NCBI GenBank assembly: GCA_017988335.1 | Contig: JAGNRZ010000001.1 | Coordinates: 2,920-66,919, forward strand | Direction: 5' to 3' | From: Ferruginibacter sp. | GTDB taxonomy: Bacteria > Bacteroidota > Bacteroidia > Chitinophagales > Chitinophagaceae | Length of the DNA: 64,000 bases | Shown: in pieces, positions 51,645 to 58,876 of the stretch | How positions within the stretch are numbered: position 1 is the first letter of the stretch | How the letters are laid out: each line of letters starts with the position of its first letter | Made by a program: the position numbers and the translations under genes | The notes under the pieces: model-generated | Told to the model about the DNA's origin: nothing | What the model saw: the letters and a program-made list of their open reading frames with translations, nothing else | The model's database searches: none

Positions 51645-53231
51645 ATGAAGAAACTAAAATTATTACTGCTTTGGATGTGCTTTTTAAGCACTGCGGCCTT
51701 TGGCCAAATTAACCAAATACGCATTGTAAGTTTTCAAGTAAAAAATACATTGCCCTCAAAAATTGATGACTGGAGCTCTGTGCCGGGAGCAATTATTTTA
51801 ACCGCTCAAAAAGCACCTACGGTGCAATTAAAAGAGCCAAAACTAGTGGTACAAATAAGAAGCAATGGTGCCATCATTTGTGGCAATACTGCCGCTACAG
51901 CACAACCCATGAATGCCTTTGAAGTAAAAACATTTACTACAAACGACATTACATCTTTATTAGGAAATTGTAAAGAACTTAAAGAAGGCACTTACCAGCT
52001 ATGTGTACAATTTTACAATTTAGATAGAATTGCTATTAGCCCAGAAAGTTGCAAAGAGTTTAAGGTAGAAAGTGCAAAAGGAGAAGAGTATGCTCCTCCA
52101 ACACTTATTACTCCAGATAACGAAAAGCGAATTAGTAAAAAAGATATTTTAAAACCTATTCAGTTTAGGTGGACACCACTTGTACCAAAACCTCAGCAAC
52201 CCGTTACTTACCGCTTAAAAGTATGGCAGTTAATGCAAGGGCAAAATGGTACCGCTGCAATGAGAAGTAACCAACCCATTGTTACTAAAGATGTAGATAA
52301 TATTACACAAGCAGTGATCAATGGCTCTGCAATTTATACTGGCCCATGTAGACCGCCATACTTATGCGATTTTGTATGGCAAGTGCAGGCACTTAACAAA
52401 GAAGGAAAACCATTAGGAAACAATAGCGGCAAAAGTGAAGTGTGGAGTTTTAAAATATTAGATGATAACATTAATACAAAAATTGATAGTGTTAGCGTAA
52501 GTTGTTGTATTAATGGAAAACAAAGTGTTTATGTTAAAATAAGTAATCTACACTTAACCAATCAAGCACAAGTAACGGCAATAAAATACAGAGTAAATGG
52601 TACAGGGCCACTTGTCACCCTTACACCAACAGTGCCTGGGTTGCCGTTTACAATAAATGCAAATGGTTCAAAAGCTTTTACGGGTAGTATAAATTGTGTA
52701 GATAGCATGAAAACGATTAAGTTTATTGTAGATGCCATTTGGCCAACCGACCCCGATAATATTAATACCGAAACAGCGTGGGACACCTTAAACTGTGTAT
52801 GTAAAATTTGCGATGAATTTAAGTTGGAAGCTCCCAAGCCAGATAATATTACAATTGCAAACAACACCATCAACTTTAATCAAGGGCTTACAGTAAGTAT
52901 TACGCCTGCTAAAACTATAAAAAGTATAAAGGCAGAGTTGGTATATTTTGAAATGACACCCGAAAACGATATGTGTATTCCTTGTAATAAAGATGCCGCT
53001 ACTTATGGGCATTTTGCAAATGGTACTAATAGTATGCAATGGAATAAACCCATACCAACCAATGTAAATATTAGTATTACAACACCACAATTAACACCTT
53101 GTTGTAGTGCAAACTTTAAATGGTGCATAAGATATAAAATAGAGTTCACCGATTGCACTACTTGTAACAAATTAGTTTGTTACGAAAAGAAAAAAGAGGG
53201 ATGTGAAAAACAAGGAGAGATAAAAAAATAA
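51645..53231 (+). CDS. Secreted Cys-containing protein of unknown function; its C-terminal domain is shared with the next gene
   Basis: Signal peptide MKKLKLLLLWMCFLSTAAFGQ. The C-terminal 140 aa (nt 52809-53228) align by eye with the C-terminus of the 1853-aa protein. Confidence 0.75.
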   Translation: MKKLKLLLLWMCFLSTAAFGQINQIRIVSFQVKNTLPSKIDDWSSVPGAIILTAQKAPTVQLKEPKLVVQIRSNGAIICGNTAATAQPMNAFEVKTFTTNDITSLLGNCKELKEGTYQLCVQFYNLDRIAISPESCKEFKVESAKGEEYAPPTLITPDNEKRISKKDILKPIQFRWTPLVPKPQQPVTYRLKVWQLMQGQNGTAAMRSNQPIVTKDVDNITQAVINGSAIYTGPCRPPYLCDFVWQVQALNKEGKPLGNNSGKSEVWSFKILDDNINTKIDSVSVSCCINGKQSVYVKISNLHLTNQAQVTAIKYRVNGTGPLVTLTPTVPGLPFTINANGSKAFTGSINCVDSMKTIKFIVDAIWPTDPDNINTETAWDTLNCVCKICDEFKLEAPKPDNITIANNTINFNQGLTVSITPAKTIKSIKAELVYFEMTPENDMCIPCNKDAATYGHFANGTNSMQWNKPIPTNVNISITTPQLTPCCSANFKWCIRYKIEFTDCTTCNKLVCYEKKKEGCEKQGEIKK

Positions 53232-53255
53232 AACCTAACTGTAAAACTAATTGTA

Positions 53256-56200
53256 ATGAAAAATTTATCTATATATACAAAATACTTTATTGTGCTTTTG
53301 ATGGCGTTTGTTTTTTCAATAACAGTCAGTAATAAGCTACAAGCACAAAGTTGTAATCAAGTTGATATTTTATATACCTCTATTGATTGTTTTGAAAGAA
53401 GTTCACACCCAGCAGGTGGCAACGAAAAAGGCTGTAAAGAAACGGCCGTTTGTTTTGGTCAAACGTACACCTATTCATCCTCTTTAAACGGAGTGGGGTG
53501 GACGTATAATTGGACGGCAACCGGACCAACGGCAGTAACCATTTCGCCAAGTAATACACAAACCATAAGTATATCTTGGCCTCAAATTGGCGATTATATT
53601 TTAACTCTTACGGCTACCGACCCATCTGGCAATGTATTTACATCATGTCTAACTGTTCATGTAATTGAAAGGCCAAATGCCAATTTTACTTTTTCGCCTA
53701 ACAATGTATGTGCTGGCTCAATGATTTCATTTAATGGAACCACCACTTACTCAAGTGGTTTTATGTCCTCTTGGGATTTTGGAGATCCTGCCTCAGGAAG
53801 CTTAAACTTTCAAACTGTAGTAGGTAATGCTCCTGTTGCTCCACACCAATACAATACAGCAGGTGCTTATACCGTAACCTTAATAACATCTAGTTTTACT
53901 ACAGTTATTGTACCTGGTGGAAATGGCGGTGTTGCAGATACTACTATTAAAACCTGCTGTTCAGATACTATAACAAAAGTAGTTAACATTTTGCCTGGCA
54001 CTATCAAAATAGAATGTATAAGTACAGTTTGTGCTGGTAGTACATCTACCTATACTATAACTGGTTGTGCCAACCCAACTGTAACGGTTACAGGTAATAC
54101 AAGTATGACTCAAAGCGGTAATCAAATTACAGTAGTTTGGGGTAGTGGTACGCCACAAGGGCAAATAACTGCAAGTTGTCCAGGCAGTTGTACGGCATCT
54201 GTACCAGTACCTATTATACCCACAACACCACAAATTATTGGCAATATTAATCCTTGTAATACTTCAACAACATCCTATTCTTTACCAGTATTGCCAGGTA
54301 CATTTTACACTTGGATGTTGCTTAATACCACCAATGGTTTGTATTATAATAGTGCAATAAATACTTATCCTGACAATAATACAGTTTGGATAAAATGGAA
54401 TTCAGTACCTGCTGGTGTATATCAATTAGGGGTTACTTTAGAAAATAAACATATTTGCTGTAAAACAACAGGCTCTTTAACTATTACGCCTAGGGGCAAA
54501 TGGACGCCTTACTTTGATCAAACAATTTGTTCTGGTTCAACAGCTAGCTTATCTGCCACTGCCGGCGGCACTTTTACATGGACAGTGCTTCCGCCAAATG
54601 CAGGTGTTGCACCACTTAGTGGTACTGGAGTTTCATTTAATCCAACTTTTGCAAATGCAGGAATATATACTGTACAGGCAATTGAAACTGCTGGTATTTT
54701 TTGCAATAGTGGCACAACAAATCCGCAACAAGTAAAGGTAACTGTAAGACCAACATTGGTACCAGGTATTATTAATGGCCCAGACAAAGTATGTGCTAAT
54801 AGTAATTACGATTATAATATGAGTACACCGGCACCAGCAGGTACACATTACGAATGGACAATTACTGGAGGTGCTGGCATATTTTTACCAAGCGGCACAC
54901 CTCCTATTATGGGAGATAATGTAACCATTAAATGGACAACAGTACCAGGTACTATTAGTGTGGTTATAAAATATAATGATTTTCCAAATTGTGCTGTTGG
55001 ACCTGTTACTAAATTAGTAACAGCAGCTACAGTAGGTACCGTTAGCGGAAATCAAAATGTATGTGTAGATGATACTTACACCTATTCGTTAACGGGGGGA
55101 ACTTTAGCACCAGGCGAAGTTATTAATTGGGTTATTTTACCATCAAGCTTAGGTTCAGTTTTATCGGGCAATGGTACTAGTACACCTACTATAAAATGGC
55201 ATGGTATGGTAGCAGGTAGTGGCCCTTGGACGGCACAACTACAAGCTACTACCAACTGTGGTAATTCTGCACTTTACCCAATTACAATTAGCAGACCACC
55301 TGTATTTAGCATAACACAAACAGGCAATATTTGCTTGGGTGGAGTAAACGTATCGGCAACGAATACGGTTGGATATACTTATTCATGGAATACATCTCCT
55401 ATTCAAACAACAAGTACAATTAATGTAACAACACCTGGTACTTACACCTGCACAGTTACCAATGGCACTTGTTCAAAATCAAAATCGGTAACTATTTATG
55501 ATCCGTTTGCTATTTTACCCATACAAGAGTGTGGTGGTCCACATTGTAATGGCTTGGCAACTAGTGAGCAATTACAAATAAGTGTAACTAAGCCTACTTC
55601 GGGCACTTTTACCTACCAATGGTTTAAAAAATACCCCACTGTAGTTTCAGTAAGTGGGCCGGTTACAAATACCAATCTTTCTAATATTTACATGGCTGCA
55701 GATTCGGGGGCTTACTTTGTGGTAGTAACTTATGGAGCTTGCAAGGATACTGCCTATTATTATGTACAAAAAGAGTGTTGCCCAGATGTGAACAATCCTC
55801 AGATTACTACTGTACGTAATAGTTGTAAGCAATTTACGTTTACTGGCACTACTCCAAATCCTACTGGAGCAACGATTACTTGGAATTTTGGTGATGGTAC
55901 AACACAACCTGGTGTTTCGGGTGTACCTGTTACACATACGTATGTGCATGCAGGCTCTTATTGCGTTACATTTTGTGTAGGGCCACCAGCAGTAAACCCT
56001 ACAAGTTGTTATGGTAATTGTGCTGGTACCAATGTAATTGTACCTATAGAAGCATTATTTACTTATAAATTAGGTTGTAATGGTTGTGTGCAAATCGATA
56101 ATCAATCTATTGCAATTCCATTAAGCCCATCATCAATTATAACCTATGATTGGAACTTTGGTGATGGATTCGATCCCCCTGCAAGTTCTAGCTCAGTACC

Positions 56201-58817: not shown

Positions 58818-58837
58818 ACCTTGTGCTATGATGTATT

Positions 58838-58876
58838 AAAGGAGGGCTAGTTTACTAGCCCTCCTTTTTATTTTTT
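58838..58876 (+). terminator. Strong rho-independent terminator ending the 51645-58817 operon
   Basis: AAAGGAGGGCTAG - TTTA - CTAGCCCTCCTTT followed by a T-run. Confidence 0.85.

Follow-up and report, generated by a model that had tools for sequence, protein, structure and literature searches.

The two cysteine-rich secreted proteins encoded at this locus of a Ferruginibacter-like bacterium, referred to here as A and B, end in one homologous domain that is new to the databases, and the A–B cassette to which they belong is widespread and uncharacterised. Our best explanation for the locus, which we hold tentatively and with slightly less than even confidence, is a signal-induced surface-adhesin module that combines a variable protein B with a conserved partner A. 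The window, that is, the whole 64-kb stretch of DNA analysed, contains the following features of the operon itself:

51645–53231, plus strand: gene A, an open reading frame of 528 aa
52794–53228, plus strand: A-type Cys-rich terminal domain (residues 384–528 of A), delimited by joint alignment and without a sequence match in Pfam, NCBIfam, or the PDB
53256–58817, plus strand: gene B, an open reading frame of 1853 aa with 85 Cys
58287–58814, plus strand: B-type Cys-rich terminal domain (residues 1678–1853 of B), delimited by joint alignment and profile search, ending in ...CCELKGRICVKFTFRNDKCEECEVIECFDFVIKKK-COOH
58838–58877, plus strand: intrinsic terminator closing the A–B operon, with a 13-bp stem containing 7 G-C pairs and a T-run

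The two genes are separated by 24 nt, and a terminator search found none in this gap. The hairpin downstream of B (58838–58867), which has a 4-nt loop and is followed by TTATTTTTTG, is the top-scoring terminator match within 47–60 kb. Co-transcription of A and B as an operon of secreted Cys-rich proteins is supported by these features, and a reading made from the sequence alone, which had proposed such an operon with two signal peptides and a strong terminator, is borne out in each of these respects.

The terminal domain common to A and B comprises approximately 145–175 residues. In a joint alignment of 30 A and B sequences, ten Cys and one Trp are invariant across the whole domain, and residues 459–517 of A align with residues 1793–1853 of B with the same cysteine spacing, CC-x6-C-x9-C-x2-C-x4-C. 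Comparison of the A-type and B-type alignments using hhalign yielded P = 5.6e-4 over 110 columns, and the HMMs of the two types each detect the other's members at ~1e-9 in more distant cassettes. No counterpart of this ten-Cys domain was found in Pfam, NCBIfam, or PDB sequences. The sequence-only reading had described a terminal domain shared by the two proteins; the homology holds, but the domain is not private to them, as a profile search retrieved at least 633 protein clusters (50% identity) that contain it, in most cases at the C-terminus. All carriers identified belong to the Bacteroidota (Chitinophagaceae and Saprospiraceae).

In 70 of 141 representatives, the ten-Cys domain ends no more than 15 residues from the C-terminus, and its end is stereotyped as C(F/Y)(D/E)x(E/V)IK(KK); among orthologues of B, the tail ...CCELKGRICVKFTFRNDKCEECEVIECFDFVIKKK-COOH is nearly invariant. 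The domain is internal in some family members and duplicated in others, with two copies in 22 of the 141 representative proteins, the first of which is clearly A-type. L068 is a fusion of an A-like N-terminal half and a second domain-bearing half, and some B orthologues continue for about 117 residues beyond the domain. Given these internal and extended positions, the ten-Cys domain fits a structural or interaction role and need not be terminal. Family members pair it with SdrD_B, DUF11, SprB, TSP1, PA14, and FG-GAP modules, and 3 of 39 diverse members also end in a genuine Por_Secre_tail. In Ferruginibacter profundus, B ends in a domain that scores as A-type, so that heterotypic A/B pairing is not universal.

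Both proteins begin with type I signal peptides, with cleavage predicted between MKKLKLLLLWMCFLSTAAFG and Q in A and between MKNLSIYTKYFIVLLMAFVFSITVSNKLQA and Q in B; orthologues display corresponding sites of the forms ...A(F/L)(G/S)Q and ...(A/N)AQ. Strongly hydrophobic 19-residue windows are confined to the N-termini, except for a marginal one around residue 1096 of B, and no transmembrane segments beyond the signal peptide were found in either protein. Neither A nor B has a lipobox Cys at a signal-peptidase II site, as would be expected of a surface lipoprotein or a type V pilin. The first Cys of B is at position +3 after an AxA-like site. In A, Cys12 falls inside the hydrophobic core and lacks conservation among 23 orthologues, which argues against a lipobox there. 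The prediction that both proteins have a Sec signal peptide and lack a lipobox was therefore correct.

In A, the signal peptide (residues 1–20) is followed by an N-domain (~22–143), one repeat module of about 125 residues (~146–270), a middle Cys-containing beta-sandwich (~275–383), and the terminal domain. Its homologues form at least 626 clusters (90% identity), all annotated as 'hypothetical' and all from Chitinophagaceae/Ferruginibacter; they fall into length classes of about 528, 655, 785, and 910 residues because the repeat module is present one to four times. Pfam and NCBIfam gave no match for A, even for its C-terminal pieces at E ≤ 1, and a SusE/SusF-like match of the repeat module and of A', a short paralogue of A encoded in most related cassettes, remained below threshold (E 0.015). 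In B, the signal peptide (residues 1–30) precedes a mosaic PKD/Ig array (~80–1430) with Ig_7 at 1191–1268, two tandem Cys-containing Ig-like domains (~1480–1675), and the terminal domain. The PKD-like and Ig-like modules noted earlier in B were recovered above the Pfam gathering cut-offs: PKD_4 (1.2e-32; 112 bits, cut-off 27), PKD (4.4e-29; 100.7 bits, cut-off 23.5), and Ig_7, 'CHU_C associated' (4.4e-08; 33.8 bits, cut-off 27.3). With PKD above its gathering score, B shares the PKD domains that mark PKD-domain surface adhesins. AF2 models of A (pLDDT 73.8) and of residues 1426–1853 of B (pLDDT 82.2) are all-beta, and their nearest PDB matches are generic tandem Ig, cadherin, adhesin, and S-layer arrays. 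Together with the signal peptides and the adhesin-like architectures in the family, these properties point to secreted, adhesin-like proteins.

The same observations bear on the suggestion that A and B constitute a binary toxin, or that one of them is a toxin delivered by the other. A small and a large protein with one common domain do resemble some binary toxins, and locus 1, a cytolysin-like cassette in the same window with the same regulator type and promoter layout, encodes a Thiol_cytolysin-like protein and a papain-like protease. However, Pfam and NCBIfam reveal no pore-forming, enzymatic, or toxin domain in A or B, the models are Ig-like sandwich arrays with no toxin among the listed PDB fold matches, the operon has no immunity-like gene, and family members have adhesin-like architectures. 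With all modules of A and B being beta-sandwiches and nothing in them toxin- or enzyme-like, the earlier idea of a two-component toxin is not upheld, and we regard it as very improbable.

Comparison with related loci shows which parts of the cassette are held constant. Genes A and B are adjacent and in this order in 57 of 60 related Chitinophagaceae loci, which answers in the affirmative whether the two genes are co-conserved, and B carries the ten-Cys domain in 44 of 45. The order persists in two cassettes (L062 and L064) at only 27–36% identity, unrelated Cys-domain gene pairs (L065 and L067) show the same order, and in some relatives A and B are fused. The short gap without a terminator, the adjacency, the order in distant cassettes, and the two-copy proteins all indicate that A and B are coupled. 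Along B, conservation is graded: of 42 orthologues, all are matched by the last 550 residues (with 68–78% identity over the final 150), but only about half by the N-terminal 1300. In one locus (L018), the passenger of B has been swapped while the terminal domain is still 83% identical. This gradient and the passenger swap suggest that the protein is anchored or assembled through its conserved terminal domain.

In 35 of 43 loci, the gene just downstream encodes an outer-membrane-like protein of about 580 residues, here called X, which forms at least 715 clusters (90% identity) annotated as 'hypothetical'. X carries a signal peptide and terminates in ...GFQY(R/K)F; no transmembrane helix is present, and aromatic residues make up about 15% of the sequence. 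In distant cassettes, it is more conserved (56–63% identity) than A and B (27–37%). No similarity to X was found in Pfam, NCBIfam, or PDB entries, and searches with PorP_SprF gave no match in 13 members even at E ≤ 10. Its frequency, its conservation above that of A and B, and its outer-membrane-like features make X a candidate partner of the pair. X and A', which itself has no ten-Cys domain, are both missing from the window and from its closest relative (L037), and likewise from 8 of the 43 loci; X is hence not obligatorily linked, and if it is required here, its gene must be located elsewhere in the genome.

These neighbourhood data also speak to the alternative that A and B work independently, as secreted or periplasmic proteins that bind, for instance, glycans or metals, whose adjacency reflects co-regulation only and whose Cys-rich domain is merely disulfide-stabilised or ligand-binding and takes no part in pairing, sorting, or anchoring. 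The very diverse architectures and variable positions in which the domain occurs would agree with this, as would the weak SusE/SusF-like matches and the two CxxC and two CC motifs, which could coordinate metal. The kinase encoded upstream (see below) has a propeller-type periplasmic sensor, and such sensors also occur in glycan-sensing regulators of Bacteroidota. In this window and in L037, the gene after the operon encodes a fucosidase, but this neighbour is confined to these two loci. Moreover, the strict A–B order, the A–B fusions, and the conserved neighbour X exceed what co-regulation would need, and conservation in an otherwise mosaic B peaks in the terminal domain, which would be unusual for a ligand-binding tip. 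On balance, we consider independent binding proteins unlikely.

Bacteroidota surface proteins are thought to be mainly lipoproteins or type IX secretion system (T9SS) cargo with type A, B, or C signals. Searches of A, B, and their C-terminal pieces against Pfam and NCBIfam detected neither the type A domain (Por_Secre_tail, PF18962/TIGR04183; E ≤ 0.1–1) nor the type B domain (CHU_C, PF13585/TIGR04131). A cryptic T9SS domain, which would have overturned the earlier view that the pair has no recognisable sorting domain, did not emerge from the profile scan, with no type A or B match at E ≤ 1. The only type B trace is Ig_7 in B, which is usually associated with CHU_C. The NCBIfam scan of the C-terminal pieces was also blank for a ChiA-type signal (CDD cl41395), although this library may not include a ChiA-type model. 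No PorP/SprF-family gene flanks the operon in the window, and no T9SS genes lie within its 64 kb.

It is conceivable, but in our judgement improbable, that the ten-Cys domain is an unrecognised T9SS signal that forms a class of its own, the fourth, with A and B both T9SS cargo and X their cognate anchor or shuttle, in the role that PorP/SprF has for type B cargo. That undetected classes exist is illustrated by the third, ChiA-type class with its ChiA-like C-terminal domain cl41395 (PMC10202324), and an outer-membrane-like gene adjoining its cargo recalls sprB–sprF, PorP-like proteins being known to anchor neighbouring type B cargo (PMC9143113). The restriction of identified carriers to Bacteroidota, the stereotyped end close to the C-terminus in half of the representatives, and the co-occurrence of some members with T9SS cargo genes on one contig (CHU_C in L064, Por_Secre_tail in L067) would also be in keeping with such a signal, and B has Ig_7 but no CHU_C, as though the ten-Cys domain had taken its place. 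The T9SS is able to move folded proteins. However, the domain has no HMM similarity to type A or B signals, nor X to PorP/SprF, at E ≤ 1–10; the domain contains ten Cys, and known T9SS signals are half its size. It is often internal or duplicated and tolerates the 117-residue extension in B orthologues, the three members with a genuine Por_Secre_tail already have a T9SS signal, and A' occurs in the same cassette without the domain. A related proposal, which we rate as rather unlikely, is that the ten-Cys domain and X define an unrecognised surface-display pathway of Chitinophagia and Saprospiria, either this fourth T9SS class or a T9SS-independent translocon or anchor, in which an A-type small subunit and a variable B-type adhesin would be joined by their terminal domains, possibly through intermolecular disulfides.

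Directly upstream of A are genes for a sensor kinase and a REC-LytTR response regulator, followed by putative regulatory elements:

47766–50711, plus strand: sensor histidine kinase, 981 aa (Pfam: His_kinase 4.9e-25, Reg_prop 8.8e-17, HATPase_c 4.2e-06)
50708–51466, plus strand: response regulator with REC and LytTR domains, 252 aa (Pfam: Response_reg 7.4e-21, LytTR 2.3e-17)
51556–51567, plus strand: direct repeat 1, CACCTATACAAT, putative LytTR operator
51577–51588, plus strand: direct repeat 2, CATCTATACAAT, putative LytTR operator, 21 nt downstream of repeat 1
51616–51629, plus strand: box AATCTTTACGTTGC, read from the sequence, ~15 nt before the ATG

The kinase consists of an N-terminal signal or anchor, a periplasmic Reg_prop beta-propeller region, one transmembrane segment, and LytS-type His_kinase and HATPase_c domains; the start of the regulator overlaps its stop by 4 nt. 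Within the 64 kb, the perfect 9-mer pair CTATACAAT-N12-CTATACAAT occurs once. Published LytTR sites, such as ACCGCTTAT-12 bp-ACCACTTAT, consist of two direct repeats of about 9 bp, 11–13 bp apart, upstream of the promoter (PMC6193735), a pattern that the repeats upstream of A fit with their 9–12-nt length, 12-nt spacer, and 21-nt period. A pair of the form (A/C)(G/A)CTTATACAAT with this period is present in 36 of 39 loci with an adjacent regulator compared with 2 of 16 without one, and in 0.9% of shuffled sequences; its position and spacing are kept across loci that are 50–90% identical in protein. The box before the ATG, kept in many related loci in the form aatCTTTA(c/t/g)GTTGcaa, is probably a core promoter (−7-like) element.

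Orthologues of the kinase lie upstream of A in 36 of 50 loci with enough flank and those of the regulator in 37 of 58; about one third of the loci have no regulator pair and carry a different, palindromic upstream element instead. Cultured F. profundus has the same arrangement of repeats and regulator as seen here. Control of A–B by the kinase/LytTR pair through the putative direct-repeat operator is thus well supported by sequence comparison. The description of the pair as dedicated is sustained by the way the repeats track the regulator, but linkage holds in only about two-thirds of loci. The parallel drawn with locus 1 was apt, as the regulator there is built alike and a separate set of direct repeats is again trailed by the AATCTTTACGT box.

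In the mechanism that we envisage for a surface-adhesin module, the propeller-type kinase would sense a periplasmic or extracellular cue and phosphorylate the LytTR regulator, which may bind the repeats at 51556–51588, with their 21-nt spacing, as a tandem dimer and activate the A–B promoter. As their signal peptides and Cys content suggest, Sec would carry A and B to the periplasm, where, with the type I signal peptides removed, they would form arrays of beta-sandwiches rich in disulfides. B would be the long effector, its mosaic N-terminal PKD/Ig array forming a variable tip on a conserved C-terminal part of about 550 residues, and A its conserved small partner. The ten-Cys terminal domains may serve as the assembly element, either pairing A with B or docking both to a common partner; in most relatives this could be the outer-membrane-like X, and B would then be presented at the cell surface.

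An adhesin-like protein of 1853 residues and its partner thus have neither a lipobox nor a known T9SS type A or B signal, and have instead a large conserved domain absent from databases. A description of this domain would provide annotation for hundreds of proteins from soil, freshwater, and wastewater Chitinophagaceae and could reveal a new mode of surface-protein sorting or anchoring. The putative LytTR operator offers a ready handle for induction and reporters, and F. profundus, a cultured species with the complete six-gene cassette, makes direct tests of the question possible.

Among known systems, LytTR regulators of the AgrA, ComE, and BrsR/HdrR type likewise have REC and LytTR domains and paired direct repeats before the promoter, and the half-site A(C)(G/A)CTTAT of the relatives is close to the ACC(A/G)CTTAT published for LytTR regulators. 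Their partner, however, is a peptide-sensing HPK10 kinase, whereas the kinase here is of the Bacteroidota Reg_prop/LytS type, no autoinducer peptide gene is evident, and the repeats sit before the effector operon. SusE and SusF resemble A in being strings of small beta-sandwich modules, with weak matches from A' and some A homologues, but they are lipoproteins in SusC/D loci, whereas A has no lipobox and no SusC/D neighbours. T9SS type A adhesins share with A and B a secreted, multi-domain PKD/Ig build, a Sec signal peptide, and a Gln at position +1, but end in the Por_Secre_tail that A and B lack. TpsA/TpsB systems pair a large beta-rich exoprotein with a neighbouring outer-membrane protein of about 580 residues, as do B and X in relatives; in contrast, Pfam finds no TPS domain in B and no POTRA/ShlB in X, and the conserved element is C-terminal, not N-terminal. 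In SprB–SprF of Flavobacterium johnsoniae, a T9SS type B protein with its PorP/SprF anchor, the parallels are Ig_7 as the usual predecessor of CHU_C and, in most relatives of the A–B locus, the outer-membrane-like gene adjoining the cargo gene. The ten-Cys domain is unlike CHU_C/TIGR04131, X is unlike PorP/SprF and absent from the window, and here a second, small protein carries the same terminal domain as the large one.

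Genes A and B, encoding two adjoining secreted Cys-rich proteins, form an operon that directly follows a sensor kinase and its REC-LytTR regulator and is closed by the top terminator match of the 13 kb scanned. The spacing between A and B is 24 nt.

47766-50711, forward strand: sensor kinase with Reg_prop, His_kinase and HATPase domains
50708-51466, forward strand: REC-LytTR regulator
51645-53231, forward strand: gene A, long ORF of 528 aa
53256-58817, forward strand: gene B, long ORF of 1853 aa
58838-58867, forward strand: terminator 3' of B, 13-bp stem with 7 G-C pairs and a T-run
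downstream of the operon: alpha-L-fucosidase

We rejected the fucosidase as a member of the system, as it follows B only in the window and in L037, the closest of the related loci from other genomes. Also rejected was the cytoplasmic pair at 45270-47686 (forward strand) upstream of the kinase, whose products lack signal peptides and which is present with only some loci. It comprises a 438-aa protein with only weak YbjN- and T3SS-chaperone-like matches and a trypsin-like protease of the HtrA type (366 aa) that bears a Cys4 zinc ribbon; at least 14 related loci conserve the pair in this place, 5' of the kinase. The remaining window content is housekeeping chromosome. Rfam and tRNA scans detected no RNA gene within the A-B locus; the sole RNA gene detected in the window is tRNA-Met (CAT) at 63388-63462 (forward strand).

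A and B each begin with a type I signal peptide, and Gln is the next residue (cleavage at AAFG/Q in A and KLQA/Q in B), and neither contains another convincingly hydrophobic segment. A is considered to be without a lipobox because its Cys12 is part of the hydrophobic core and varies among orthologues. There are 22 Cys residues in A and 85 in B, with the highest density near the C-terminus in each. Pfam matched PKD_4 (1.2e-32), PKD (4.4e-29) and the 'CHU_C associated' Ig_7 (4.4e-08) on B and nothing on A, and NCBIfam gave nothing significant for either. The sequence-only reading had found no recognisable sorting domain, and this stands after profile searches of the full proteins and of their isolated C-terminal pieces: when residues 386-528 of A and 1426-1853 of B were rescanned separately against Pfam and NCBIfam at E <= 1, neither Por_Secre_tail (the type A T9SS signal) nor CHU_C (type B) nor any other sorting domain was detected, the model for the ChiA-type signal (type C; PMC10202324) possibly lying outside the library. 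Types A, B and C are the only T9SS C-terminal domain classes described in the literature examined, and a literature search for Ferruginibacter and T9SS returned no paper. AF2 models of A (pLDDT 73.8) and of the C-terminal part of B (pLDDT 82.2) are both all-beta. A PDB fold search with them retrieved nothing beyond generic tandem arrays (Ig, FN3, cadherin, complement and S-layer) at TM-scores of at most 0.25, which, the queries being uncropped multi-domain models, has no bearing either way on a T9SS-signal-like fold.

The terminal domains of A and B are homologous. BLASTP aligns residues 459-517 of A with 1793-1853 of B at 31% identity, and the Cys spacing is the same in both (CC-x6-C-x9-C-x2-C-x4-C). 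With orthologues included, the similarity covers the last 145 residues of A and the last 176 of B, and ten Cys and one Trp are invariant in a joint alignment of 30 sequences, in which the B-type subfamily carries an insert of about 40 residues that is partly present in some A-type variants. Alignment of the A-type against the B-type subfamily with hhalign gave P = 5.6e-4 across 110 columns; each of the two HMMs also finds the other subfamily, at about 1e-9, in more distant cassettes. The strand orders of the two domains also match in the AF2 models. A six-frame search of the window for the Cys motif found copies in A and B only.

Scanning one genome of each species yielded 61 related loci, all from Chitinophagaceae-type MAGs, which were compared at the ORF level and in which A and B are tightly co-conserved.

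Cassette genes among related loci with enough flank
B directly after A: 57 of 60
full B with the Cys-rich domain: 44 of 45
LytTR regulator upstream of A: 37 of 58
kinase upstream of A: 36 of 50
gene X (about 580 aa) in the locus: 35 of 43

The co-conservation reaches down to low identity (A 36%, B 27% and X 56% in L064) and includes fusions. L068:10001-14551 (P0213, 1516 aa) has an A-like N-terminal half with an A-type domain and a second half with another copy; a LytTR regulator and a kinase precede it and X and A' follow, so that it looks like an A-B fusion inside an otherwise complete cassette. Because of the fusions and the fixed gene order, A and B are probably coupled, either physically or in stepwise function. 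Variants include L062, with A, two differing B proteins, a small putative lipoprotein and X, as well as L065 and L067, where unrelated Cys-domain gene pairs are likewise ordered A-type then B-type. In the cultured Ferruginibacter profundus, assembly GCA_054783275.1, all six genes are found at BAAGQW010000003.1:1333513-1355249: the kinase, its regulator, an A of 600 aa, a B of 1041 aa, X and A'. The B domain of this species scores as A-type, for which reason we rejected a strictly heterotypic A-type with B-type pairing as a universal rule. Several ORFs stand in place of the A, B and kinase genes in L037 and L051, both of them long-read MAG contigs; this looks like frameshift assembly error and not like genuine pseudogenes.

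X usually lies directly 3' of B and is usually followed by A', a paralogue of about 300 residues that comprises the N-domain and repeat of A without its Cys-rich half. X carries a signal peptide, lacks a TM helix, contains about 15% aromatic residues and ends in GFQY(R/K)F, which is at the exact C-terminus in L068 and elsewhere is followed by 2-6 further residues; from these features, X looks like an outer-membrane beta-barrel. Sequence and profile searches of X against Pfam, NCBIfam and PDB returned no match, its 715 homologues are all annotated 'hypothetical', and permissive scans of X, A' and the terminal domains gave nothing usable, only SusE at 0.015 (A') and DUF481 at 0.053 (one X). By tblastn, X is absent from the 64-kb window and the A' query matches gene A alone; both are also absent from the sampled 22 kb or so around the L037 cassette.

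The shared ten-Cys domain is widespread and undescribed. Searched against 1.84 billion representative proteins, a profile of the joint alignment matched 633 (120 to 2280 aa long) at E <= 1e-3, of which 348 remain at E <= 1e-10; named carriers are Chitinophagaceae/Ferruginibacter and Saprospiraceae/Lewinella. Sequence and profile searches of the domain against PDB sequences found no relative. In 70 of 141 representatives inspected, no more than 15 residues separate the end of the domain from the C-terminus, and its C-terminal ends are stereotyped (CFDFVIKKK, CFDVEIK, VCYEKKKEGC). The main rival explanation, in which the domain would serve as a new T9SS signal and X as its anchor, seems unlikely to us: it is weakened by the size of the domain, by its internal or duplicated occurrences and by its co-occurrence, in some proteins, with genuine type A signals. 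More than 60 residues follow the domain in 37 of the 141 representatives, and 22 contain two copies (e.g. P0196, P0220, P0223, P0236 and P0247), the first clearly A-type. Among 39 diverse members, three end in a genuine Por_Secre_tail (Pfam), and partner modules include SdrD_B, DUF11, SprB, PKD, TSP1, RCC1, FG-GAP and PA14. Several B orthologues (L005:11561-17419, P0131, P0148, P0155, P0160, P0177 and P0178) extend about 117 residues beyond the domain with a Cys-containing Ig-like module ending in CGGKKCECKFKVNIPNK; the domain therefore need not sit at a free C-terminus.

Two further motifs were observed. CCP(E/K/D)F directly follows the signal peptide in many B-type proteins (L018:11939-17539, L064:8714-14116, P0166, P0168, P0171, P0180, P0183, P0187 and P0228), some of which show partial N-terminal matches to the domain HMM; a motif of this type, as CCPYE, also opens the C-terminal Cys-rich domain, and the N-terminus of the window's B is unlike those of these proteins. 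The two-copy proteins P0194, P0202, P0212, P0222, P0224, P0238, P0245, P0272 and P0292 end in YFY(K/R)(I/L)E..G....YEKVLIT.P..GCNCGKK, an ending that looks like the final strands of a type A T9SS signal with a short CxC tail after them.

The 178-nt spacer between regulator and A contains a conserved operator of LytTR type, whose presence goes with that of the regulator.

51556-51567, forward strand: direct repeat 1, CACCTATACAAT
51577-51588, forward strand: direct repeat 2, CATCTATACAAT
51616-51629, forward strand: conserved box AATCTTTACGTTGC, 3' of the repeats

The repeats share a 9-mer core, are spaced by 12 nt and occur as a pair once in the window. Their spacing and core closely resemble those of published LytTR sites, which are 9-bp direct repeats at 12-bp spacing, often ACC(A/G)CTTAT (PMC6193735). 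In related loci, two copies of (A/C)(G/A)CTTATACAAT with a period of exactly 21 nt lie 75-125 nt 5' of A. Of the 39 loci in which the regulator is adjacent, 36 contain the pair, compared with 2 of the 16 without one (in one of these two, the flank is too short to see a regulator) and 0.9% of shuffles; two of the three regulator-bearing loci scored as misses have a TATACT variant. In regulator-less loci (L003, L006, L008, L011, L016, L028, L036, L039 and L041), an ACAATAT-N10-11-ATATTGT palindrome replaces the direct repeats some 60-90 nt upstream of A, which suggests that the same operon may there be under a different, dimeric regulator encoded elsewhere. The upstream neighbour in L036 is dnaN. 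A sigma-70 promoter scan was uninformative (50 matches versus 54 expected).

In locus 1, a second cassette of the window (6361-13991, reverse strand), a paralogous pair of kinase and LytTR regulator is followed by two further genes.

10914-13991, reverse strand: sensor with Reg_prop, Y_Y_Y and His_kinase domains
10153-10911, reverse strand: REC-LytTR regulator
10111-10143, reverse strand: promoter, CTTCTAAATACTA twice with a 20-nt period, then a AATCTTTACGT box
7905-10049, reverse strand: DUF7452 and Thiol_cytolysin-like protein, 713 aa
6361-7872, reverse strand: 502-aa protein with Asn/Gly-rich repeats and a Peptidase_C70 papain-like domain

The sequence-only reading had ascribed the same promoter design to both loci, correctly: locus 1 has its own repeats, and the AATCTTTACGT box is common to both promoters.

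When 100-aa windows of B were compared with 42 orthologues, the first 1300 or so residues found a match in only about half of them, and the last 550 or so in all 42, with identity rising to 68-78% over the last 150. In L018, the N-terminal passenger differs and the terminal domain is 83% identical. Judged by sequence, such a pattern fits a protein whose distal tip varies and whose basal or assembly end is conserved. We propose that the propeller kinase would switch on the A-B module upon an external cue, that A and B would fold outside the cytoplasm as disulfide-rich beta-sandwich arrays, and that B may be a variable-tip adhesin with A as its conserved partner. The terminal domains would pair A with B or dock both to a common outer-membrane partner, in most relatives presumably X. 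A toxin, also suggested earlier for the pair, found no support.

None of the three core protein families, namely A, the Cys-rich domain and X, is described in a database, and we found neither a paper on them nor a described counterpart of the paired A-type/B-type domain logic. The system is experimentally tractable. It is of a familiar kind, a two-component-regulated adhesin operon of Bacteroidota, and its cassette resembles type B T9SS substrates in its layout of a cargo with a neighbouring anchor.
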